Counted from the stretch's first letter, positions 3,742 to 26,108 are shown. The stretch: DNA of 40,349 nt from Candidatus Doudnabacteria bacterium RIFCSPHIGHO2_02_FULL_46_11 (GCA_001779955.1 MFES01000001.1:1-40349), one strand, 5' to 3'. The notes: generated from the letters alone by a model not told the origin. Program-made: numbers and translations.

Positions 3742-5124
3742 TTAGTAGGTTTCAAGCAAGCGAATGAGCAGGCGAACCGGCGCCCCGGCTGCGCCTCGGG
3801 CAAGAAAATCGCCGTCAGCGGCCGTCATGCGTGGCGCAATATCGATGTGCGCAAAGAGAGGAAAATCTTTGGCCCACTGATAAAGGAATATAGCTCCGTG
3901 AGTGGCTCCGCCGTATTTGGTTTTGCCGATGTTTGCCCAATCGCCAAAAGTACCGCGGATTTCGTCTTCATACTCATCCCAAAGTGGCAGGGGCCAAACA
4001 TAATCTCCGGTTTCTTCGCCGAGCTCGCGCAAGGTTTTTTCCAAGGCCTCGTCTTTGGTGAATATCGCGCTGGCCCGGGTACCGAGAGCCACCATGGCGG
4101 CGCCGGTCAGTGTTGCCACGTCTATCACCAGGCGGGGATTATATTTTTTCGCATAAGTCAGCGCATCTGCTAAAACCATGCGCCCCTCGGCGTCCGTATT
4201 TAAAACCTCGATAGTTTTTCCTGACATCGTTCTTACTACGTCGCCGGGACGGTAGCTTCCGCCTGAAACCATGTTTTCGGCAGCCGGAACTAGGCCAACG
4301 ATATTTTTATTTATTCCCAAACGCGCGGCCAAAGCAAGGGCATGAATCACGGCCGCACCGCCCGACATGTCCAAATGCATATCACCGATATGCTCGCTGG
4401 GTTTTATGTTTATCCCGCCGGTATCAAAGGTAATGCCCTTGCCGACCAGAACGATGGGACGCTCTGTTCCACTATTTAAATATTCCAGAACTATAAACTG
4501 GGGTTCGGCGCCTGAACCCTGGCCCACGCTAAGCAAACCGCCCATCTTAAGGCCCTTTATTTCCTTTAGTCCTAAAATTTTAACCTTGACTTTTGTGCCG
4601 CGCATCGCGTTTTTGGCGGCTTGAGCCAAAAGTTTTGGCGTCATGTCGCTACCCGGGGTATTCGACAAATCACGCGTTTTATTGACTTCCGCGCCTATAA
4701 TTATGCCGTTTTCCAATTCCTGACGAACGCTCTGGGCGAGATTTCCGACAATAACCACTTTTTGCACAAAATTCCAGCCTTCCTTCGGTTGAGTTTTGAA
4801 AGCAATAAATTCGTAATTTGCCATTTCGAAATTCACGGCCAGAGTGCGGGCCAAATGCTCCTGGGAAACTTCAGAATTGGAAATGAACAAAACCTCGCTA
4901 AAATCCAAAGCGATTTTCTTAAACCGATTTGCTTTGGCCTGCATCAAGATGCGGCGAAAAACGTAGGGCAGTTTGCGCCTGGTAATTTTTTTCCTATCGC
5001 CCAGCCCAAAATTTAAAATTTTGCGGTTGCGAACCACTTCAAGCCAGGTAGTCCGCCCATTATGGAGTCGAATAACGGCTAAATCAAGGCTTTTAGGCAG
5101 CTTTTTTGAAAATTTAAATTCCAT
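3742..5124 (-). CDS. pepA: Leucyl aminopeptidase (M17)
   Basis: 460 aa; VGKGITFDTGG, DMSGGAAV and NTDAEGRMVLADAL signatures. Confidence 0.85.
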   Translation of the reverse strand: MEFKFSKKLPKSLDLAVIRLHNGRTTWLEVVRNRKILNFGLGDRKKITRRKLPYVFRRILMQAKANRFKKIALDFSEVLFISNSEVSQEHLARTLAVNFEMANYEFIAFKTQPKEGWNFVQKVVIVGNLAQSVRQELENGIIIGAEVNKTRDLSNTPGSDMTPKLLAQAAKNAMRGTKVKVKILGLKEIKGLKMGGLLSVGQGSGAEPQFIVLEYLNSGTERPIVLVGKGITFDTGGINIKPSEHIGDMHLDMSGGAAVIHALALAARLGINKNIVGLVPAAENMVSGGSYRPGDVVRTMSGKTIEVLNTDAEGRMVLADALTYAKKYNPRLVIDVATLTGAAMVALGTRASAIFTKDEALEKTLRELGEETGDYVWPLPLWDEYEDEIRGTFGDWANIGKTKYGGATHGAIFLYQWAKDFPLFAHIDIAPRMTAADGDFLARGAAGAPVRLLIRLLETY

Positions 5125-18162: not shown

Positions 18163-19476
18163 ATGTTCGAGGCTACAAGGGTGAAAATAAGAAACAAAAA
18201 AACTAAATTGAGGCAAACCATTTTAAAATCGGCCTTAGTCGTTTTTTTGTCATTAGCCCTTGCTTTGGCAAACAATATACCTCTGCCGGATGCCGGTGCG
18301 GCCACAATTGAACAAGAACTTCAGGCCAAACAGCAACGGTTAAAAGAACTTGAAAACCAAATTAGTCAAACCACCAAAGATATAAACTCATTGGTTAAAC
18401 AGCAGAATACCTTACAGAACTCAATTAAAATTTTTACGGCGCAGATAAGCCAGGTTACCACCCAGATTGTCGTTACGGAAACTAAAATCGAAATCGCGGG
18501 CGATAAAATCACCGAGCTTAACGGGCAAATTCGCATCAAAGAAAATGAGGTGGAAAGAGTCAAACAAAACCTGGCCAACCTGATACGGGAACTCTACCAG
18601 ATGGATAGGTCAGACTCAACCATTATGGCCTTAATGAATAACGACAACCTTTCAGATTTCATTAACGCGGTTTCCCAAATAGAAAACGTACATGGCCGAA
18701 GCTATGAACTGCTCCAGGATATTAAGGAGCTAAAAGTACAGCTTGAAGACAACCGCGCGGAGGTGCAGGAGCAAAAAAAAGAGCTTGAGCAGTTTGAAAT
18801 CGCCCTTACGGACCAGAAAAATCTGCTTGATAACCAAGTAAAGGCAAAGAATGATTTATTGGTTAAAACCAAAAATCAGGAAAGTATCTACCAGGCATTG
18901 CTGGCGCAAAACAAGAACGAAGAGGATAAAATACAGCAGGAAATTCAAGATTTAGAGAATAAAATCCGGGTACAGCTTGGTGAGCGTACTTCACCGGGCA
19001 AAAAAGGTTTATTTAAAATTTGGCCGATGAACGGCACCTTGACCCAAGGCTACGGCAACACAGGTTTCCGTTCGCTTGGCTATTCGTTCCATAACGGTTT
19101 AGACATTGCCGCCGCAGCCGGCACGCCAATTTATAACGTTTACGACGGCACGGTTAACGGCACAGGTTCAAGCGATAAGGCTTACGGCAACTGGGCCACG
19201 GTCAGGTATGAATTGCCAAACGGCCGCTGCGTGGTAGCCCTTTATGCCCATATGCTTAAGCGGAGCGTAAGCGACGGCCAAAGCCTGAAGGGCGGAGCGG
19301 TGATCGGTACCGAGGGCAACACCGGCAATACCACACGTTTGCTTTACGGACCGCATCGCGGTTTTCACCTGCATTTTACCGTATTTGACTGTGAAGGATT
19401 CCAAATTGTAAAAAGCGTAAACGGAAACTACATGGTGCCAGTTGGGTATACCTATAACCCCAACGATTTCCTGTAA
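18163..19476 (+). CDS. M23 family metallopeptidase with long N-terminal coiled coil
   Basis: 437 aa; signal/TM, Q/E/K-rich coiled coil, then HNGLDIAAAAGTPIYNVYDGTV...ALYAHM...GNTG. TTACAA-N17-TATAAT (18125-18153) lies 9 nt from the ATG. Confidence 0.85.
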   Translation: MFEATRVKIRNKKTKLRQTILKSALVVFLSLALALANNIPLPDAGAATIEQELQAKQQRLKELENQISQTTKDINSLVKQQNTLQNSIKIFTAQISQVTTQIVVTETKIEIAGDKITELNGQIRIKENEVERVKQNLANLIRELYQMDRSDSTIMALMNNDNLSDFINAVSQIENVHGRSYELLQDIKELKVQLEDNRAEVQEQKKELEQFEIALTDQKNLLDNQVKAKNDLLVKTKNQESIYQALLAQNKNEEDKIQQEIQDLENKIRVQLGERTSPGKKGLFKIWPMNGTLTQGYGNTGFRSLGYSFHNGLDIAAAAGTPIYNVYDGTVNGTGSSDKAYGNWATVRYELPNGRCVVALYAHMLKRSVSDGQSLKGGAVIGTEGNTGNTTRLLYGPHRGFHLHFTVFDCEGFQIVKSVNGNYMVPVGYTYNPNDFL

Positions 19477-21419
19477 ACCCCTCCCCGCGGCAAGACCGCG
19501 GGGCATTCGCGCGAGGCGTTGTAAATTTTATAGTACCTTGCAAAAACATAATAAGTGCGCCCCGTCATCAGGGCGCACTCATTCTTTATGCGTTCAGAAG
19601 CCTCCTTCAACCCAAGTAAAACTACTACTCGAATTTTACGCCCTTCTCCCCGGAGCAAATGCGGCGGATAAGCGCCGCAAAAACGAGGCAGTTGCACTGC
19701 ACGATCGAGAAGTTCAGCAGGCCTGGCACTCACTTCGAGGTAAAACCCGATCAGCCTGTTCAAGGCCGAAAGCAGCTCATCGCCGGCAATGTCCCGAGCA
19801 GCCTCTGCTGGCCGTTCCTCGCCCGACCTGGCCTCCCCAAGCAGTTCAGGGGGCTCTGGATTATGCGGGTGCATGGGCCCGCGGGGTCGAGTGGCTGTTA
19901 TGGCCGGCCGCCATGACTTTTGCTCAGGGGTCAGCAGGCCATTGAAGCGGAAGACCCGCAAAATGAATGACTTCAAGGACCCCGTAAACTCCTCACCAAA
20001 CACCTGACTCGCTTCAACATACAGCGCGCGTCGGTCCACCGGCGGGCTTCCTGACTCGAGACGCTCCTTGACCCACCTGCGCAGCCTCTCATCTCCCGTC
20101 TGTGCGTCTGTCGTCTGTTGTCTGTCGGCCCTAGGGGCTTGTCGCGGAGCCGGAGCAGGATGCCACTTGCGCTGCTCGGATGTGAGTAAATCGTTACCCG
20201 CGAATGCCCGATAGACGAACGAAGGGAAGCTGCCTACGGAATCAGTACCGTAAACATGCAGGGCTTCCGCGTAAAGATCCTTGCGACTCGCGGGTGGATC
20301 AGCTGATTCCAGTCGGTTTTTGACCCAAAGCTGCAAGAGGCTGACCTCGGCGGTCCGCCACGTAGTTTGTATTGAACCGACCCATGCCCTCTGTTCAGGC
20401 GTGAGTAGCTCATTATGAACGAAACAGTACTGGCTGAAGGACGCAAAGTTCGCCGCATATTCCGGGAACTTAGCTTGCGCCTCGATGTACAGCGCCCTTC
20501 GGTTCGCCGGCGGTATATCTGACTCGAGACGCTCCTTGACCCATGGCCTTAGCTCGCCCCTTGAGCCGGACAGATCGATGTCTCGGGACACGACAGGCGT
20601 CACAGCCTGCCGCGTTTCTGCGGGTTCTGGACATTCACGCGGGACGTCTTCTGATACAGGGGCGATATGTGCCTCGCTCGGCCGTGCATCGGCAGCATTG
20701 CCATTCTGCGACTGTAATACCGAACCCGCAATAAACTCCTGCATGGCCTGAAGGACAGCTGGCGAAGAATGACCATGGAGGTTGAGGCCGCGCGCACCGG
20801 CCAAATACAGCATAGGCCCGTAGTGGCTATCCCAAGCCTGCCAAGCCCTGGAACGCGTCCTTTGAGGGGATTCCCCCCGATGATCGTCAGCATGGCGCTG
20901 GAGTTCGAGAAACTCCACGAGGAACTCAAGCGGGACCATGTCATCGCCAGATTCTCGGCTAGCAATACTTCTCACGGCCGCCAAAAGATCGCGGATTTCC
21001 TTACTGATGAGGTGGACTTCAACGGTCAGACCTTGCGGATTTCCAGCTCGGCCGCCAAACCGCACCATATGGCTGATGCGGCCATCCGGCAAATCGCCCA
21101 GAGCTTCGCCGACGCTATCGTCTGCGGGGCCCACCGTTTCGCGCGGAATGACGATTACCCCCGAATGGCTAGCATTTGGCTTGACTACCCACACTGAGAA
21201 TTTGCCCTCATCGAGCGAAAAGGCCTTGTATTTCCGAGGAAAAATGCTGCCATGCTGAATGACCAAGCCGCCTGTCTCGAGAGCCAGCCAGTCCAGACAG
21301 CCAGGCAGGCCCAGGTGAGGGAAACGATCCTGCAGCTTCTCTACGTATAGCCGCAAATCGCAGTTGAACACCGCGGCCAAATAAGCCGCGACTCCTTGTT
21401 TGTAATTGCTCTGCTTCAT
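19452..21419 (-). CDS. Island E: 655-aa hypothetical protein with three tandem ~57-aa repeat modules
   Basis: Uninterrupted GC-rich ORF; ATG 21419 preceded by TGAGGTG (the track starts at TTG 21431). Repeats at aa 294-350, 365-423 and 450-507 of the track numbering. No family recognised. Confidence 0.7.
   Translation of the reverse strand: MKQSNYKQGVAAYLAAVFNCDLRLYVEKLQDRFPHLGLPGCLDWLALETGGLVIQHGSIFPRKYKAFSLDEGKFSVWVVKPNASHSGVIVIPRETVGPADDSVGEALGDLPDGRISHMVRFGGRAGNPQGLTVEVHLISKEIRDLLAAVRSIASRESGDDMVPLEFLVEFLELQRHADDHRGESPQRTRSRAWQAWDSHYGPMLYLAGARGLNLHGHSSPAVLQAMQEFIAGSVLQSQNGNAADARPSEAHIAPVSEDVPRECPEPAETRQAVTPVVSRDIDLSGSRGELRPWVKERLESDIPPANRRALYIEAQAKFPEYAANFASFSQYCFVHNELLTPEQRAWVGSIQTTWRTAEVSLLQLWVKNRLESADPPASRKDLYAEALHVYGTDSVGSFPSFVYRAFAGNDLLTSEQRKWHPAPAPRQAPRADRQQTTDAQTGDERLRRWVKERLESGSPPVDRRALYVEASQVFGEEFTGSLKSFILRVFRFNGLLTPEQKSWRPAITATRPRGPMHPHNPEPPELLGEARSGEERPAEAARDIAGDELLSALNRLIGFYLEVSARPAELLDRAVQLPRFCGAYPPHLLRGEGRKIRVVVLLGLKEASERIKNECALMTGRTYYVFARYYKIYNASRECPAVLPRGGVYRKSLGL
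19476..19516. repeat. Left copy of a 41-bp inverted repeat (partner at 25685-25725)
   Basis: AACCCCTCCCCGCGGCAAGACCGCGGGGCATTCGCGCGAGG; 40 of 41 identical to the reverse complement of the partner. Contains the hairpin CCCCGCGG-CAAGA-CCGCGGGG and starts on the last base of the M23 stop codon. Confidence 0.85.
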
Positions 21420-21558
21420 TTGGCACCTCAACTTATGGGGGAAAAGTAGGGATATTCAATTGGAAAGGAACTGCTTGCAGGTAGTATATCCAAACCTTCT
21501 GGAATGAGAAAGAGAAGTTCAATATAACGATAATGCAGGACCCAAGGCGGTTTTTAGT

Positions 21559-21587
21559 TTGACATTTTTTTTATTAATATGTATAAT
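21559..21587 (+). promoter_or_regulatory. Consensus sigma70 promoter for island F (TTGACA-N17-TATAAT)
   Basis: Exact hexamers at 21559-21564 and 21582-21587; SD AAGGAGG at 21606-21612; ATG at 21617. Confidence 0.7.
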
Positions 21588-21616
21588 GAATTTCTACCCA
21601 ACGGCAAGGAGGCCGA

Positions 21617-21952
21617 ATGGAAGAACGCAACATCGCCAGTTTCGACACTTACGCGAAGGTGATCAATGCCGACGGCAGCCTTCGTGTCGCGACCAAGCGC
21701 CATCTGATCCGCCGGGCCAGGACGATCGCCCAAGCCAGCGGCGGCACCCTCACATCAGTGCAAATGCTGCGGGTCTGCGGGGACACCGAGGAGGGACGTG
21801 AGCGTGTCACCCAGGTCTTGGCTCAGGCTGTTCTGAATGAGGCCGGGAGCCACACCATGGCCGAGGATTTCACCGGTTACGGGACGCTGGTCGGAAGCAC
21901 GAGGTCGAGACAGAAAACCGGCCACCGTCAGCGACGGAACATGGGCGCGTAG
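21617..21952 (+). CDS. Island F: hypothetical 111-aa protein, divergent partner of island E
   Basis: GC-rich ORF with consensus promoter, SD and terminator; basic C-terminal tail RSRQKTGHRQRRN. No family recognised. Confidence 0.6.
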   Translation: MEERNIASFDTYAKVINADGSLRVATKRHLIRRARTIAQASGGTLTSVQMLRVCGDTEEGRERVTQVLAQAVLNEAGSHTMAEDFTGYGTLVGSTRSRQKTGHRQRRNMGA

Positions 21953-22010
21953 CCCTAACAGGCGAGTGCGGCTGACCGCTAAACGCGGGACAGAGCGCGC
22001 GTCTGCATGA

Positions 22011-22056
22011 AAACGACCCGGTTGAACACCACGCCGGGTCGTTTCGTATTTCTTTT
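22011..22056 (+). terminator. Intrinsic terminator of island F
   Basis: AAACGACCCGG-N12-CCGGGTCGTTT followed by CGTATTTCTTTT. Confidence 0.75.
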
Positions 22057-22195
22057 CTCGTTCAGCAGGGGAATATGCGACGATTGAATTTACACTTGTC
22101 ATCTACTCACCCTAAACACTTTATTCACTACCCTTCCTAACTTATCCACTATCTTCGCGATATCCGCTTATTTTTTGCTCTAAAAAATATGTTTA

Positions 22196-23158
22196 TTAAC
22201 TTTTCATATCGCGTCCGCCATGAAATTTTTCATGAACATCGCGCAGGCGCTTGTTGGTAATATGGGTATAGACTTGTGTAGTAGCCACGTTCTTGTGTCC
22301 CAATAATTCCTGTATGCTCCGCAAATCAGCGCCATGGGCGAGTAAATCAGTGGCATAAGAATGGCGGAAAGTATGAGGCGTCACTTTTTTAGAAAGCCCG
22401 GCCAGCCTGGCGCATTTGGATACCATAACCTGAATTGAGCGGGCGGATAATCTGTTCTCGTCATCTTTTGATTTTAAGCTAATAAACAAAGCTTTGGCCA
22501 AACTATAATGGCGCGCCGCTAAATATCGACGAAGCCATTGGGCCGCCCGGGGCGAGATAAAAATCGTTCGTACTTGTCTGCCCTTGCCAACAATGGAAAG
22601 CTCGTAAGTTTTATCGGTTTTTTTGTCGCTCAACATTGACATCTGATCAACATTTAATGACACCAGTTCCGAAATACGCAAGCCTGACGAAAAAAATAAT
22701 TCCAAAATGGCGCGATCCCGCAATCCTTTAAATGTATCAGTATCAAAGATGCTTAACATTTTTTCCACATCACTGGCTTCCAAAAAAGAAATATTATCGT
22801 CAGACTTTTGTTTAGCCAACTTTACCTTGGAAGAGGGAAGTGAGTCTATATCCCTGTCCGCAAAGTAATTCAGTAAGGCGCGCAAGGCTATCAAGTAGTA
22901 GTTTTGTGATTTTTTACTTAAAAAGCCACCTTTGGGATTTTGATACTTGCGCGCAATATATAAGCGATAGTCCCAAAGATGCTTAGTGGTAAATTCATGC
23001 GGAAATAATTTTTCCTGACCCACGATTTTTAACCAGCCCGTAAAAAGGCGAAGGTACTGATTATAGTTTCTCTGCGTATTATTAGACAAACCTTTCTCAA
23101 CTTCACAGTAATCAAGAAAGGGGAGAATATGCTCTGAAATAGGAATACCGTTCTTCAT
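22196..23158 (-). CDS. Tyrosine site-specific recombinase, XerC/XerD-like
   Basis: 320 aa; N-terminal SAM-like core-binding domain, catalytic region RDRAILELFFSSGLRISE, HTFRHSYATDLL, LLGHKNVATTQVYTH. Backbone-like AT-rich composition. Confidence 0.85.
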   Translation of the reverse strand: MKNGIPISEHILPFLDYCEVEKGLSNNTQRNYNQYLRLFTGWLKIVGQEKLFPHEFTTKHLWDYRLYIARKYQNPKGGFLSKKSQNYYLIALRALLNYFADRDIDSLPSSKVKLAKQKSDDNISFLEASDVEKMLSIFDTDTFKGLRDRAILELFFSSGLRISELVSLNVDQMSMLSDKKTDKTYELSIVGKGRQVRTIFISPRAAQWLRRYLAARHYSLAKALFISLKSKDDENRLSARSIQVMVSKCARLAGLSKKVTPHTFRHSYATDLLAHGADLRSIQELLGHKNVATTQVYTHITNKRLRDVHEKFHGGRDMKS

Positions 23159-23437
23159 ATCACTAGTTTACATGGATTAGTAGCTTCGCACAATATATGT
23201 AAAACGAATGAATGTGGATATCCTGATATCTCTGGCCAGCCAATAAATCACTCCGGTCTAAATACTTTCCATGCCGTCGGTCCAAACTACAATGTAGCTG
23301 CAGCAATGACGAATCATGGGCTGTATATATACAAAGGGTACGGAAATGACCTCAAGATATACCTCTTAAACAAGAATACAAATCAGATAAGCATTTGCTA
23401 TTACTTATGTTTGCGCATCTCCTTCTACAAACCGTAG
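23138..23437 (+). pseudogene. Start-less 100-codon open frame (possible gene remnant or unannotated small gene)
   Basis: Own codon-by-codon reading: open from stop TGA at 23135 to TAG at 23435 in AT-rich DNA, ..NECGYPDISGQPINHSGLNTFHAVGPNYNVAAAMTNHGLYIYKGYGNDLKIYLLNK... The only ATG/GTG/TTG is at 23306. Confidence 0.3.
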
Positions 23438-23708
23438 AACCGGGCGCGGTCAAGTGAATTAAAAGACGTAAATAAATTTAAAGAAGCGCCAAAAACAATA
23501 AGCGGGTAATTACATTATTTTAATATAAAAGGAGAGTGTGAGAACGCAGCAAACTTTGTACGACAATAATGCACAAGGCAAAGAATAGAATTAAAGGCTT
23601 GGTGTAGGAAAAGAGCTCTTCTCCGAGGTCTTCTCTGGCAATCCCCATTTGACAATTATCCACAGTTGTGATTTTTGGTTTCAGGGATGTTTCCGTTGGT
23701 GCCGCTAT

Positions 23709-24851
23709 TTATCCGCCGCGTAATTTATTAATTTCATTTTTTACTATTGATGCCGCCTCTGCTACTTCCCTATCCTCCGTATCAATACCCAAACTCAAAC
23801 GCAAAGATCCTGAATATTTTTTTATATCAATGCCAAGCGCTTCTAAAACTGGCGAAACCTTAACGGCGCCGGTGCTGCAAGCGCTTCCCGGCGACGAAGC
23901 AAGGCCAGCCCTGTCTAAAGCGATATTTAGTATCTGTGGGTCTATCCCTTCGAACGAAAAATGAGCAATATGTGGAACGGACGATGATGATTGACTGTTT
24001 AGAATGACGCCAGGAACGCTGGCTTGTATTTTTTTGAGCAAATCGTTGCGCAGTTTCCTAACTTTTTCTCTAGGCCAATCTTTGGACAGTTTAAGAGCCT
24101 TGGCCAGCCCAGCGATAAGAATTGTGCTTTCAGTACCCGCCCGTTTCCCCCATTCTTGAAAACCCACGAACTGCGGACTCAAATTAGCTCTGGAATTTAC
24201 GTATAAAAAACCAACGCCTTTCGGCCCATAAAGCTTATAACCACTGCCTGTAATTAAGTCGGCATTAAGCTCGCCGACATTAACATCAAGCCATCCCAGA
24301 CCTTGGGCGGCGTCTGTATGAAACAGTGTTTTTGGATTCTTGGCTTTAACCACTCCTGCCAGCTCGGCAATATTTTGCACCGTGCCGGTCTCATGATTAG
24401 CATAAATAATAGAAACCAGGGCTGTATTTTCTTTTATCGAATTTTCCAGACTAGCAACATTTACCAGCCCGTCTTTACCGACCTCTACCCAACTCACCTC
24501 AAGGCCCATACTTTCTAAAAACCTAGCTTGCTCGTAAATACTGGGATGTTCTATCTTCGATATAACCAAATGGGGCTTCTGACCCTTAATACGAAGGTAT
24601 TCAAGCACTCCGCGCAAGGCCAAAAAATTAGATTCAGTGGCGCCACTAGTGAAAATTATTTCGTCGGTATTGGCGCCTATCGATTGTGCAATTGATAAAC
24701 GGGCATTATCGATGATTGCCCGAGCCGCTCTCCCCTCTTTGTGTAGTGAGGAAGCGTTGGCCCAAAATTTTTCCGCGCGCATCATTTCTTTTTTTACTTC
24801 CGGATGAAGGGGCGCGGCCGCGGCATAATCTAAATAAATCCGTTCGTTCAT
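23709..24851 (-). CDS. Cysteine desulfurase (class V aminotransferase, NifS/IscS-like)
   Basis: 380 aa; IYLDYAA, FTSGATESN, HTDAAQ, SGYKLYGPKG (PLP lysine) and active-site SPGSACS. Confidence 0.85.
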   Translation of the reverse strand: MNERIYLDYAAAAPLHPEVKKEMMRAEKFWANASSLHKEGRAARAIIDNARLSIAQSIGANTDEIIFTSGATESNFLALRGVLEYLRIKGQKPHLVISKIEHPSIYEQARFLESMGLEVSWVEVGKDGLVNVASLENSIKENTALVSIIYANHETGTVQNIAELAGVVKAKNPKTLFHTDAAQGLGWLDVNVGELNADLITGSGYKLYGPKGVGFLYVNSRANLSPQFVGFQEWGKRAGTESTILIAGLAKALKLSKDWPREKVRKLRNDLLKKIQASVPGVILNSQSSSSVPHIAHFSFEGIDPQILNIALDRAGLASSPGSACSTGAVKVSPVLEALGIDIKKYSGSLRLSLGIDTEDREVAEAASIVKNEINKLRGG

Positions 24852-24858
24852 AGTGGGG

Positions 24859-25674
24859 TCAGTTTAATTCGCACTCCAATTTAAGAGCATTTAAATCTTC
24901 GTGCGTGATGACGAGATTGCCGGTTTCCTGCTCTTTCATAAGATAGTACATGACGGATTTTGGATTTTCAACATGCTCCAAGTTCAGGGCATGGCCGAAC
25001 TCGTGGGCCAGGACCAACCTTAAATCCGACAACTCTTCAAACTGGTAAATGTTAATTTCCTGACCATCATACTGTCCCTGGTCAAAAATGCGCGCCACAT
25101 TGAATTTTTGATTGTAGGTGGACACAGTCAAATTGTGCCTTTCCACCAATTCATTCAGTCGGTCTGCCAAAGCCCTAAGTTTATTAGCCATTATCGCAAG
25201 TTCTATTTGCTCATCCCTCAAGCGATTGTAATCCTCGCGTGGCGCCCCTCCCCTACTATTCCAATACCCAACCTCTGCTTCATGGCGCAACAGCCTCGCT
25301 TCGTATTGGTCATTCAGAGTGGTGTACTCAAGCTCCAGGGCGCTGTAAGAAGAGTCGCTGACAGTTATCTTTTCGCGGAGCTTTTTTTCTTCCACAGTAC
25401 GCTGTTGACGCTCGTCATAAATTAAATTTATTTTAAAAGCTGCCTGAGGGTCATAGCTAAAAAGCTGACGCGCGATCGGTTCTTCCCAAACTTCTTCCGT
25501 TTCCAACAGCAGTCCTTTAAATTTGTCCAAACTTACGCCAAAGCGCTCGTCAAACTCGCCGATTGAATAATAAAGCGGCTCGTCGCAGCGAGTTTTTTGG
25601 AATTGCATAAGGCTAGCCGTGGCCGCCAAAGCTATAACCAGAATTATCAGGATGGGTTTGATAAATCGAAACAT
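24859..25674 (-). CDS. Membrane-anchored zinc metalloprotease (matrixin/M10-like HExxHxxxxxH)
   Basis: Start moved to ATG 25674 (MFRFIKPILIILVIALAA), because the track extension is translated from the 41-bp repeat. HEFGHALNLEH zinc motif. Confidence 0.7.
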   Translation of the reverse strand: MFRFIKPILIILVIALAATASLMQFQKTRCDEPLYYSIGEFDERFGVSLDKFKGLLLETEEVWEEPIARQLFSYDPQAAFKINLIYDERQQRTVEEKKLREKITVSDSSYSALELEYTTLNDQYEARLLRHEAEVGYWNSRGGAPREDYNRLRDEQIELAIMANKLRALADRLNELVERHNLTVSTYNQKFNVARIFDQGQYDGQEINIYQFEELSDLRLVLAHEFGHALNLEHVENPKSVMYYLMKEQETGNLVITHEDLNALKLECELN

Positions 25675-25684
25675 ACTTACAATA

Positions 25685-25725
25685 CCTCGCGCGAATGCCC
25701 CGCGGTCTTGCCGTGGGGAGGGGTT
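25685..25725. repeat. Right copy of the 41-bp inverted repeat
   Basis: The reverse complement reads AACCCCTCCCCACGGCAAGACCGCGGGGCATTCGCGCGAGG. Starts on the last base of the stop codon of the 25725..26108 gene, the same placement as the left copy. Confidence 0.85.
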
Positions 25726-26108
25726 CACCTTGAACTTTTCCGAAAACCGGCGGCTTGGGCTTCAGCCTCGGTGTTAAAGCACATTTCCGGGTCGGTGCGG
25801 TCATAAAATGAGCCGCCGGGAAGGTGATAAATCCTGCTCGATGAAGAAATATTACCTTTTATTCTGCAGACAACGCCGTTTTCCAGAATATTTTCGCCAA
25901 GCACGGCCTGTGATTGAATATCACCCCGCAAAATGGTAGAATGAATGGGTGATTTTTCAATATTTATAAGGGGTTGAACGCCTGCTCTGCCGCCAATTTT
26001 GCCCGTAAAAAAGCCAAGCAAAAATACGCAAGTAAACGTCGCAGACAGTAAGATTATCTTTTCATTCCGTTTTATAAATTCTTTCAAACTATTCATAAGA
26101 GGGATCAT
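25725..26108 (-). CDS. Sunset-domain protein with N-terminal membrane anchor
   Basis: 127 aa; C-terminal CRIKGNISSSSRIYHLPGGSFYDRT..CF.TEAEAQAAGFRKS pattern. Confidence 0.65.
   Translation of the reverse strand: MIPLMNSLKEFIKRNEKIILLSATFTCVFLLGFFTGKIGGRAGVQPLINIEKSPIHSTILRGDIQSQAVLGENILENGVVCRIKGNISSSSRIYHLPGGSFYDRTDPEMCFNTEAEAQAAGFRKSSR

Follow-up and report, generated by a model that had tools for sequence, protein, structure and literature searches.

The window analysed here, a stretch of 40,349 nucleotides of Candidatus Doudnabacteria DNA, contains two inverted repeat arms about 6.2 kb apart, each abutting the end of a gene, with a gene for a tyrosine recombinase between them. The features of this region are as follows.

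18163-19476, plus strand: M23 peptidase gene; the native C-terminus (...DFL, stop) is kept and the hairpin element abuts the stop codon.
19473-19525, plus strand: left copy of the hairpin element, GTAA-ACCCCTC-CCCCGCGG-CAAGA-CCGCGGGG-CATTCGCGC-GAGGCGTT-GTAA(A).
19483-19503, plus strand: GC stem of 8 bp with a 5-nt loop, CCCCGCGG CAAGA CCGCGGGG, the core common to elements in other genomes.
19550-19583, no strand assigned: GC hairpin that resembles a terminator and has T-runs on both strands, located between the M23 gene plus element and the 655-aa ORF.
19452-22102, no strand assigned: GC-rich (55-59%) lineage-specific insertion between the stops of xer and M23, absent from the related loci L047, L063 and L102.
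19452-21419, minus strand: orphan ORF of 655 aa with three internal repeats, in the GC-rich insertion.
21617-21952, plus strand: orphan ORF of 111 aa with a 12/12 promoter-like site ahead of it, in the GC-rich insertion.
22196-23158, minus strand: Xer-type tyrosine recombinase gene (xer), 320 aa; XerC/XerD models match it over its full length, and it is highly conserved across Parcubacteria.
23185-23208, minus strand: dif-like site TTCGTTTTACATATATTGTGCGAA, 24 nt, located 26 nt upstream of the xer start and single-copy in the window.
23709-24851, minus strand: NifS/IscS-like cysteine desulfurase gene; its orthologs in L047 (66% identical) and L063 (64%) keep the same relative position.
24859-25674, minus strand: M10-like Zn metalloprotease gene, 271 aa, with a signal-peptide-like N-terminus; the L047 ortholog is 58% identical.
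25677-25728, minus strand: right copy of the hairpin element; it differs from the left copy at four positions, and one of these changes breaks the stem.
25725-26096, minus strand: sunset-domain (ArfC-like) gene, just outside the bracketed stretch and co-directional with the M10 and NifS genes inside it.

The gene content is as the first-pass annotation had described it: a Xer recombinase, a cysteine desulfurase, a Zn protease and two GC-rich orphan genes. Searches of PHROGs and PADLOC returned nothing for the 655-aa, 111-aa and 115-aa ORFs, and the 127-aa sunset ORF had no record in an exact look-up. GC skew across the window tracks gene strand.

The inverted repeat pair is 52 nt long (19473-19524 versus 25677-25728), with 48 of 52 positions (92%) complementary and an identical core of 29 nt shared by both arms. 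It embeds the 41-mer pair that had been annotated previously (19476-19516 and, as reverse complement, 25685-25725; identity 40/41), which is therefore confirmed and extended. A 34-nt core has two matches in the window at up to 3 mismatches, compared with none in 100 dinucleotide-preserving shuffles, so that no such repeat is expected in the window by chance; the earlier observation that the window holds no third copy was borne out by the same scan. That each 41-mer begins with the final base of a stop codon was also correct, since the M23 gene ends at 19476 and the stop codon of the sunset-domain ORF occupies 25725-25727. In the full repeat, bases 2-4 form a stop codon, TAA for the M23 gene in the left copy and TGA for the sunset-domain gene in the right copy, and the stop codon together with the preceding G thus falls within the 52 nt.

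A third copy, identical to the left copy at 53 of 53 positions, is located on another contig (loci L009 and L054-L059), 3 nt past the stop codon of a 209-aa gene; this gene is unrelated and is convergent with one for an oxidoreductase. This locus is assigned to the same organism because it is found in the same samples and assemblies as the window and at the same contig depth (8-11 versus 8-9). No further copy was found in about 17 kb walked on a 121-kb contig and 20 kb around the third copy. The metagenome scan returned only L009 and L008, and the latter was rejected as a chance match that lies inside a long ORF on a high-GC contig with no flanking similarity. The viral contig collection gave no match to the element, and a 28-mer from its 3′ half gave none in the genome contig collection, which lacks the genome of the window. 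Logan metagenome contigs break at the repeat and carry at least 7 different upstream flanks as well as variant 3′ ends; they diverge from the window before 19473 and after 19525/19526. In run X1 the repeat occurs in 19 contigs, 7 of which have unrelated upstream sequence (agreement 0.51); the corresponding numbers in run X3 are 16 and 6. The sequenced copies number 3 in about 78 kb of genome, and the other contexts (about 8 in the metagenome) are deduced from contig ends and could partly come from co-occurring relatives. No tyrosine recombinase was found near any other hairpin copy.

The element measures 44-53 nt and forms an imperfect palindrome of the 8-bp stem plus a closing stem. Its 5′ tetranucleotide is GTAA in two copies and GTGA in one, and its 3′ end is again GTAA. 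The termini show the inverted similarity AACCCCTC / AACGCCTC, at 7 of 8 positions in two copies and 6 of 8 in the right copy. GTA(A) flanks both sides of every copy, and, because these flanks are the same in all copies, a target-site duplication would be indistinguishable from the sequence of the element. The hairpin CCCCGCGG-CAAGA-CCGCGGGG had been attributed to both arms; it is perfect in the left copy, whereas a G-to-A difference breaks it in the right copy. Two other identities were rejected: an integron attC site, because the core sites do not fit RYYYAAC/GTTRRRY, and a CRISPR repeat, because there is no array.

The recombinase between the arms is a conserved Parcubacteria Xer and not a dedicated invertase of the hairpin repeats. 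It matches XerC/XerD models end to end at about 224 bits, versus 50-62 bits for invertase models, and has more than 6000 homologs, the top 120 of which are 70-80% identical and spread across lineages. The dif-like 24-mer occurs exactly once in each of 62 assemblies; in 56 of these its distance upstream of xer is 18-89 nt, with both on one strand, and it is invariant in five lineages whose flanks cannot be aligned. The site is non-coding, 29% GC and partly palindromic, with outer TTCG/CGAA and inner ACATAT/ATTGT symmetry. The 24-nt site is the candidate target of the Xer protein, the role of which is most likely the resolution of chromosome dimers through this site. The arrangement matches the xerS/difSL and xerH/difH modules (PMC2731167). 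Like those of XerS/difSL in streptococci and lactococci and XerH/difH in epsilon-proteobacteria (PMC2731167), the Parcubacteria site is AT-rich, partly palindromic, non-coding, invariant, present once per genome and located tens of bp from xer, but it differs from them in sequence (TTCGTTTTACATATATTGTGCGAA) and in lineage (Parcubacteria/Patescibacteria). No paper describing this site was found in the library searched. An invariant dif-like site next to xer in at least 62 Parcubacteria genomes is documented independently here, and it offers a definite candidate, open to experiment, for the resolution of chromosome dimers in a group without genetics.

The two arms are very probably independent copies of a REP/MITE-like hairpin element that is dispersed in this Doudnabacteria-like CPR genome, that of an ultra-small groundwater bacterium, and the Xer recombinase is unrelated to them. 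On this reading they are two separate insertions at stop codons, which is ordinary. One copy would have landed at the M23 peptidase gene, on its TAA, and the other at the sunset-domain gene, on its TGA, within the conserved sunset-M10-NifS string. The copies look like an inverted pair because both have the same orientation relative to their upstream genes, which converge. Since the repeats are dispersed and the recombinase is an ordinary Xer with a site of its own, the 6.2 kb between the arms very probably form neither a DNA switch nor a mobile element. We infer that the repeat spreads by transposition, either as a MITE of the terminal-inverted-repeat type or as a hairpin element of the REP/HUH type; no candidate transposase was found in the sequences covered. 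The first-pass annotation had offered a duplicated hairpin element behind stop codons as its alternative, and this is essentially what the evidence supports. That annotation had named, as findings that would point to a generic element, many copies genome-wide behind unrelated genes together with no read evidence of inversion or excision; copies behind unrelated genes exist and no inversion is seen in assemblies, but only one further copy has been sequenced and the rest are deduced from contig flanks.

That the repeats are selected cis-regulatory RNA hairpins (3′-UTR stabilisers, attenuators or translational couplers), recurring by function and not by mobility, is improbable. All three sequenced copies are intergenic, lie 0-3 nt past a stop codon and are in sense orientation to the upstream gene, the stem is a stable 8-bp GC helix, and the GAGG arm of the right copy precedes the M10 ATG by 10 nt, as such a function would predict. 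However, the element contains no T-run and is thus not an intrinsic terminator, and its folding energy is ordinary for its composition (z = -1.5 in the left copy and +0.2 in the right copy with its broken stem). No Rfam family was matched by the element in the window and nine loci, and orthologous junctions in relatives do without it. In addition, the 100% identity of two copies at unrelated sites points to recent copying, not to convergent function. An RNA role is nevertheless compatible with dispersed REP/MITE-like insertions as a secondary effect. With dispersed insertions as the main explanation, too, the hairpin in the transcript may stabilise or punctuate the upstream mRNA. The right copy fills the whole spacer between the sunset stop and the M10 ATG (25674), ending 2 nt short of the ATG; it does not close a transcription unit, M10 being co-directional with the sunset gene, and its GAGG arm may serve as a ribosome-binding site.

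The first-pass annotation had suggested an invertible segment or element ends on the strength of inverted arms with a recombinase inside. In an invertible segment, the recombinase within, or else RecA through the identical core of 29 nt, would flip the 6.2 kb and thereby switch expression. Two further observations could be read in the same direction: the 8-5-8 palindrome of the arm can be redrawn as arms of about 10 bp around a 7-nt asymmetric spacer, and xer lies on the opposite strand to M23, unlike the situation in 36 of 37 other Parcubacteria loci. The flip of xer is, however, old, because it is common to L102, in which xer and M23 are convergent and 35 nt apart with no hairpin. In the closest relative, L047 (M23 65% and NifS 66% identical by tblastn), the order is M23(+), NifS(-), M10(-), sunset(-), methyltransferase(+), L27 and L9, with neither hairpin nor xer, so that the orientation of NifS and M10 relative to sunset is unchanged from that in the window. 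Genes inside and outside the bracketed stretch are ancestral co-directional neighbours in relatives without the repeat, which speaks against both element ends and an invertible segment. In L063, the Xer protein of which is 80% identical, NifS and xer are adjacent and co-directional. Related-locus scans centred on GluRS and on NifS gave only distant relatives of no use for synteny.

A flip would also sever the sunset-M10 junction, the whole spacer of which is the arm, and the inverted form would show hybrid arms of the type M23-...CCCCG...GAGGTATTGTAAGTATG-M10. Colinearity with the window, at 99.8-100%, holds for all six independent assemblies, two of which span both arms with k-mers longer than the repeat. 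Assembled contigs of 8 runs have the window orientation only, and the low-coverage runs X6-X9 contain the same strain with the reference junction and no variant arrangement; orientation was judged on assembled contigs, and a rare inversion through the 29-nt identical core would fall below this resolution. Together with the third identical copy and the several contexts that have no recombinase nearby, the housekeeping nature of the Xer protein with its linked site and weak matches to invertase models, and the degraded stem of the right arm, these findings make an invertible segment highly unlikely. It is scarcely credible that the arms bound, as terminal inverted repeats, a composite mobile element or island of 6.2 kb with its own integrase, because, although they enclose an integrase-family gene and 2.6 kb of GC-rich lineage-specific DNA, there is no target-site duplication outside the pair (CAACGATTTCCT on one side, CTTGAACTTTTC on the other, with no direct repeat), NifS and M10 are ancestral neighbours of sunset, methyltransferase and L27 with the same place and orientation in L047, the position of xer between M23 and L27 is ancestral in Parcubacteria, only 19.5-22.1 kb is lineage-specific and is not bounded by the two arms, and the arms have copies elsewhere.

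For dispersed hairpin insertions, the predicted empty sites are ...TTTCCTGTAA joined to ATTTTATAG and ...TTCAAGGT(G/A)A joined to GTATG. The orthologous junctions in L047 and L102 are without the element but have diverged too far to count as clean empty sites; no clean empty site was seen in a close strain, nor was M23 found joined directly to sunset. The main value of this result is negative, in that it keeps a CPR genome from being wrongly credited with a phase-variable or mobile segment: the attractive geometry of inverted repeats with an internal recombinase consists of two unrelated, ordinary things.

REP/BIME sequences of Enterobacteria and Pseudomonas and the GTAG-headed SMAG sequences of Stenotrophomonas are extragenic imperfect palindromes of 20-65 nt, often just past stop codons, and REP pairs are often inverted by chance of insertion. 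The element resembles them as a short extragenic palindrome with several dispersed copies and a tetranucleotide 5′ of the stem, and its GTAA/GTGA head is similar to, but not the same as, the GTAG of REPs. It differs from REPs in its low observed copy number (3 in about 78 kb sampled and about 8 metagenome contexts) and in its CPR host. With MITEs such as Correia/NEMIS of Neisseria, RPEs of Rickettsia and QMITEs of Coxiella, it shares a non-coding hairpin with terminal inverted similarity, insertion at gene boundaries with a stop codon supplied or overlapped, and identical copies at unrelated sites. It is at the very small end of the MITE size range, has no demonstrable target-site duplication and has no known parent IS. 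A literature search found nothing relevant on the hairpin sequence or on MITEs in Patescibacteria. Invertons such as fimS with FimB/FimE, the promoter invertons of Bacteroides and the Rci shufflons likewise have inverted repeats near a tyrosine recombinase gene, but here the repeats are multi-copy, the Xer is a housekeeping enzyme with another site, and the supposed segment consists of six genes in ancestral order, seen in one orientation.

A small palindromic repeat family is thus added for this genome, and exact, so far unexplained relatives of its core hairpin occur in distant MAGs. The 24-nt core CCTCCCCGCGGCAAGACCGCGGGG occurs exactly in eight GTDB-representative contigs, four of them in one MAG, where it forms the 5′ module of a unit of about 115 bp with ATGAACC...GGTTCAT termini. 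The copies in that MAG do not fit an IS630-type TA duplication. The element differs from known MITEs in that larger composite elements, in MAGs labelled as other phyla, have its hairpin core too. Its 5′ module of about 33 nt (TGAACC..TCCCCGCGGCAAGACCGCGGGG.AT) recurs in MITE-like units of MAGs that carry the labels Proteobacteria, Clostridia and another CPR lineage. It is conceivable, if rather doubtful, that the hairpin is a stop-codon-seeking mobile element that targets (G)TAA/TGA and regenerates the stop with its own first bases, which would make insertion at gene ends harmless in a genome with almost no spacer DNA. If the hairpin is such an element, the shared 5′ module would mean that one hairpin-recognising mobilisation system works across phyla. 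In the MAG contigs, AATGAA always precedes the 24-nt core and resembles the GTGAACC/GTAAACC of the window, and sister hairpins carry compensatory changes in the stem.

The inverted pair reported by the first-pass annotation, a 41-mer AACCCCTCCCC(G/A)CGGCAAGACCGCGGGGCATTCGCGCGAGG at 19476-19516 that recurs reverse-complemented at 25685-25725, is confirmed by sequence, and according to a repeat finder its full length is 52 nt (19473-19524 and 25677-25728, 92% complementary). The 34-nt core, with at most three mismatches allowed, has exactly two matches in the window versus none in 100 shuffles. As the annotation stated, each 41-mer starts on the last base of the stop codon of the outer gene, and both stop codons, each with its preceding G, therefore fall within the repeat:

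M23 peptidase ORF, ending at 19476; stop codon TAA within the repeat
sunset-domain ORF (ArfC-like), stop codon TGA at 25725-25727, within the repeat

Relative to its upstream gene, each of the two copies is oriented alike, and they appear as an inverted pair only because the M23 and sunset genes converge. Between the stop of sunset and the start codon (ATG, 25674) of the co-directional gene for the Zn protease M10, the spacer is taken up by the right copy. The element folds into a single imperfect hairpin with a closing stem AAC-CCTC/GAGG-GTT and an inner stem CCCCGCGG/CCGCGGGG, and contains no T-run. The folding energy is -23 kcal/mol for the left copy and -22.5 kcal/mol for a third copy described below (z about -1.5). 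The broken stem and four substitutions of the right copy (-17.5 kcal/mol, z = +0.2) are what drift without constraint would produce in an older copy. The pair most likely arose by two independent insertions, at stop codons, of a small palindromic element that is REP/MITE-like. Because GTA(A) is found at both ends of every copy and is identical around all of them, a target duplication is inseparable from the element sequence. Once inserted, the hairpin could affect mRNA ends, and the GAGG lying 10 nt upstream of the M10 ATG could affect translation of that gene.

The repeat is not confined to the two copies. A metagenome scan revealed a third copy with 53-nt identity to the left copy, 3 nt past the stop codon of an unrelated 209-aa gene and facing an FAD/NAD oxidoreductase gene, on a 96-kb contig (locus L009) that carries groEL, dnaG and rpoD; it is found in all six assemblies of that locus. 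Because this locus and the window share samples and assemblies at equal contig depth (8-11 versus 8-9), they belong to the same organism. The alternative that the annotation had mentioned, a duplicated hairpin element behind stop codons, is upheld. About 37 kb more of this genome contains no copy besides the third, which gives a density of about 3 per 78 kb. In the groundwater and soil runs of 2015-2016 in which the window locus occurs as Logan contigs, the contigs end at the repeat. In run X1 the element is present in 19 contigs, seven of which continue, on the upstream side of 19473, into sequences unrelated to one another (agreement 0.51), with several distinct continuations 3′ of 19503-19526; run X3 has 16 such contigs with six unrelated upstream flanks. 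The contigs part ways before 19473 and after 19525/19526, which marks the element boundaries. Copy number is more safely judged from the roughly eight distinct flanks than from the summed depth on the element (about 220 versus 8), which is an overestimate because overlapping unitigs are counted repeatedly. Separately, a stretch of the 209-aa hypothetical gene (L009 about 4606-4739, equivalent to about 10.9 kb in locus L054) has a summed depth of about 100-137 versus 8-11 in its flanks, and so may belong to another repeat family.

A side result worth noting concerns exact matches to the hairpin core in distant genomes. The 24-mer CCTCCCCGCGGCAAGACCGCGGGG occurs in eight GTDB-representative contigs, where the chance expectation in 596 Gb is about 0.004; the genome of the window is itself absent from that collection. 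The core is preceded by AATGAA in all eight (ATGAACG with two extra bases between in L028), where the window copies have GTGAACC/GTAAACC, and is followed by TAT in 7/8 and by AAT in L025. Four of the matches (L023, L026, L027, L029) lie in one MAG labelled Clostridia, in which the hairpin opens, as its first module, a MITE-like multi-hairpin unit of ~115 bp with ATGAACC...GGTTCAT termini; these units sit between ordinary genes on at least four contigs. The core is single in L022, L024, L025 and L028 (MAG labels Proteobacteria, Gammaproteobacteria and Andersenbacteria), and sister hairpins whose stems differ by compensatory changes are present in L024 and L028. The labels, taken as given, thus span Proteobacteria, Clostridia and another CPR lineage. 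Viral contigs and a further ~0.88 Mb of retrieved DNA, most of it from other CPR genomes, did not contain the core; the element matched no Rfam family, and a literature search found no paper on it. The surroundings of the third copy and of the eight distant copies contain no tyrosine recombinase gene.

The annotation's headline reading, an invertible segment or the ends of an element, is refuted, within what assemblies and synteny can show. Six independent assemblies of the region (two ENA MEGAHIT k141 contigs, 121 kb and 26 kb long and each covering both arms; a scaffold; two JGI contigs; and another ENA contig) are all colinear with the window at 99.8-100%, in one orientation as read from assembled contigs, which drop rare variants. 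In low-coverage runs, short contigs cross the right arm in the reference configuration, and the sole joint on opposite strands is a separate 3.3-kb contig that holds another copy and matches both arms.

Relatives of GluRS and M23 put the organism in CPR/Patescibacteria, closest to Candidatus Doudnabacteria. In the comparison of synteny that the annotation proposed, the closest relative with context, L047 (tblastn identity 65% for M23, 66% for the cysteine desulfurase NifS, 58% for M10 and 60% for sunset), lacks the hairpin element at this locus, as well as the xer recombinase gene; NifS and M10 keep the same order and orientation next to sunset. The order there is fmt-def-...-GluRS-M23(+), HAD hydrolase, NifS(-), M10(-), a 49-aa ORF(-), sunset(-), methyltransferase(+), L27, L9, so NifS and M10 within the segment and sunset beyond it form an ancestral co-directional neighbourhood. 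Judging from gene order, the orientation of NifS-M10-sunset in the window is ancestral and the 6.2-kb segment is not a unit. Outside the two arms there is no direct repeat. The M23 C-terminus reads ...DFL* in the window and in L047 (...DFLK* in a further relative, L102); the element thus adjoins the native stop codon of M23 and leaves the protein unaltered.

The recombinase within the segment is of the Xer type:

22196-23158, minus strand, xer, 320 aa

Its matches to XerC, XerD and PRK00283 extend across the whole of each model (about 221-224 bits); those to tyrosine invertase models score only 50-62 bits. The best 120 of more than 6000 homologs at E < 1e-30 are 70-80% identical and belong to Kaiserbacteria, Zambryskibacteria, Paceibacterota and others; the identity of the neighbouring M23 among relatives drops to 62%, then 45%. 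In three of these lineages xer lies between GluRS-M23 and L27-L9. A further 60 loci show M23 upstream on the same strand in 36/37 and L27 downstream in 18/18, so the position of xer is ancestral. The co-occurring relative L063 (Xer 80% identical) shares with the window the placement of NifS and xer side by side on one strand. The window has xer on the strand opposite to M23, which could have meant an inversion. The two genes also converge in L102, the nearest relative among the loci compared, where they are 35 nt apart with neither hairpin nor GC-rich genes between them, so the flip is old and has no relation to the repeats. A second tyrosine recombinase gene (309 aa) lies two genes past xer in L063 (3505-4434; L064 1611-2540), and two assemblies of that locus are 99.9% identical until L063 position 4831 and then wholly divergent, so that the region past this gene may be strain-variable or rearranging.

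Between the stops of xer and M23 lies a block of distinct composition:

19452-22102, GC-rich block, 55-59% GC versus about 45%, with orphan ORFs of 655 aa and 111 aa

The convergent arrangement in L102 implies that this GC-rich sequence (19.5-22.1 kb) was inserted later, between the two stop codons. L047, L063 and L102 all lack the block, and the gap between xer and M23 in these relatives can be 35 nt. The 655-aa ORF has three internal repeats, the 111-aa ORF is preceded by a perfect TTGACA-17-TATAAT, and neither has a match in Pfam, NCBIfam, PHROGs or PADLOC. The 655-aa reading frame crosses a terminator-like hairpin and the left repeat copy, with its stop codon inside M23. A contig in the low-coverage runs X6 and X7 skips 278 nt of this ORF (20753-21032), with CCGTTT at the joint, possibly a length variant of the internal repeats or a mis-join at them.

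A further side result worth noting is a dif-like site linked to xer, first hinted at by a recurring stretch at contig loose ends:

23185-23208, minus strand, dif-like site TTCGTTTTACATATATTGTGCGAA, single-copy in the window, 26 nt before the xer ATG

The site falls within a 550-nt gene-free gap (23159-23708), is 29% GC and partly palindromic, and is invariant in an alignment of the xer upstream regions of five lineages, the rest of which is unalignable. The exact 24-mer is found once per contig in 62 contigs, each with its own assembly prefix and almost all with the label Patescibacteria, and in 56/62 it lies 18-89 nt (mode 26-27) upstream of an xer ortholog on the same strand. Over 7000-40349, gene strand and GC skew flip sign near 19.5 kb, 3.7 kb from the site, from plus-strand genes with positive skew on the left to minus-strand genes with negative skew on the right; because 1-7 kb is again minus-strand with negative skew, the window alone cannot place a terminus. 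A literature search linking dif, Xer and Patescibacteria found no paper. The xer gene of the window with its upstream dif-like site shows the pattern of xerS/difSL and xerH/difH, described as "an individual genetic module"; in several species the distance between difH and xerH is 16-66 bp (PMC2731167).
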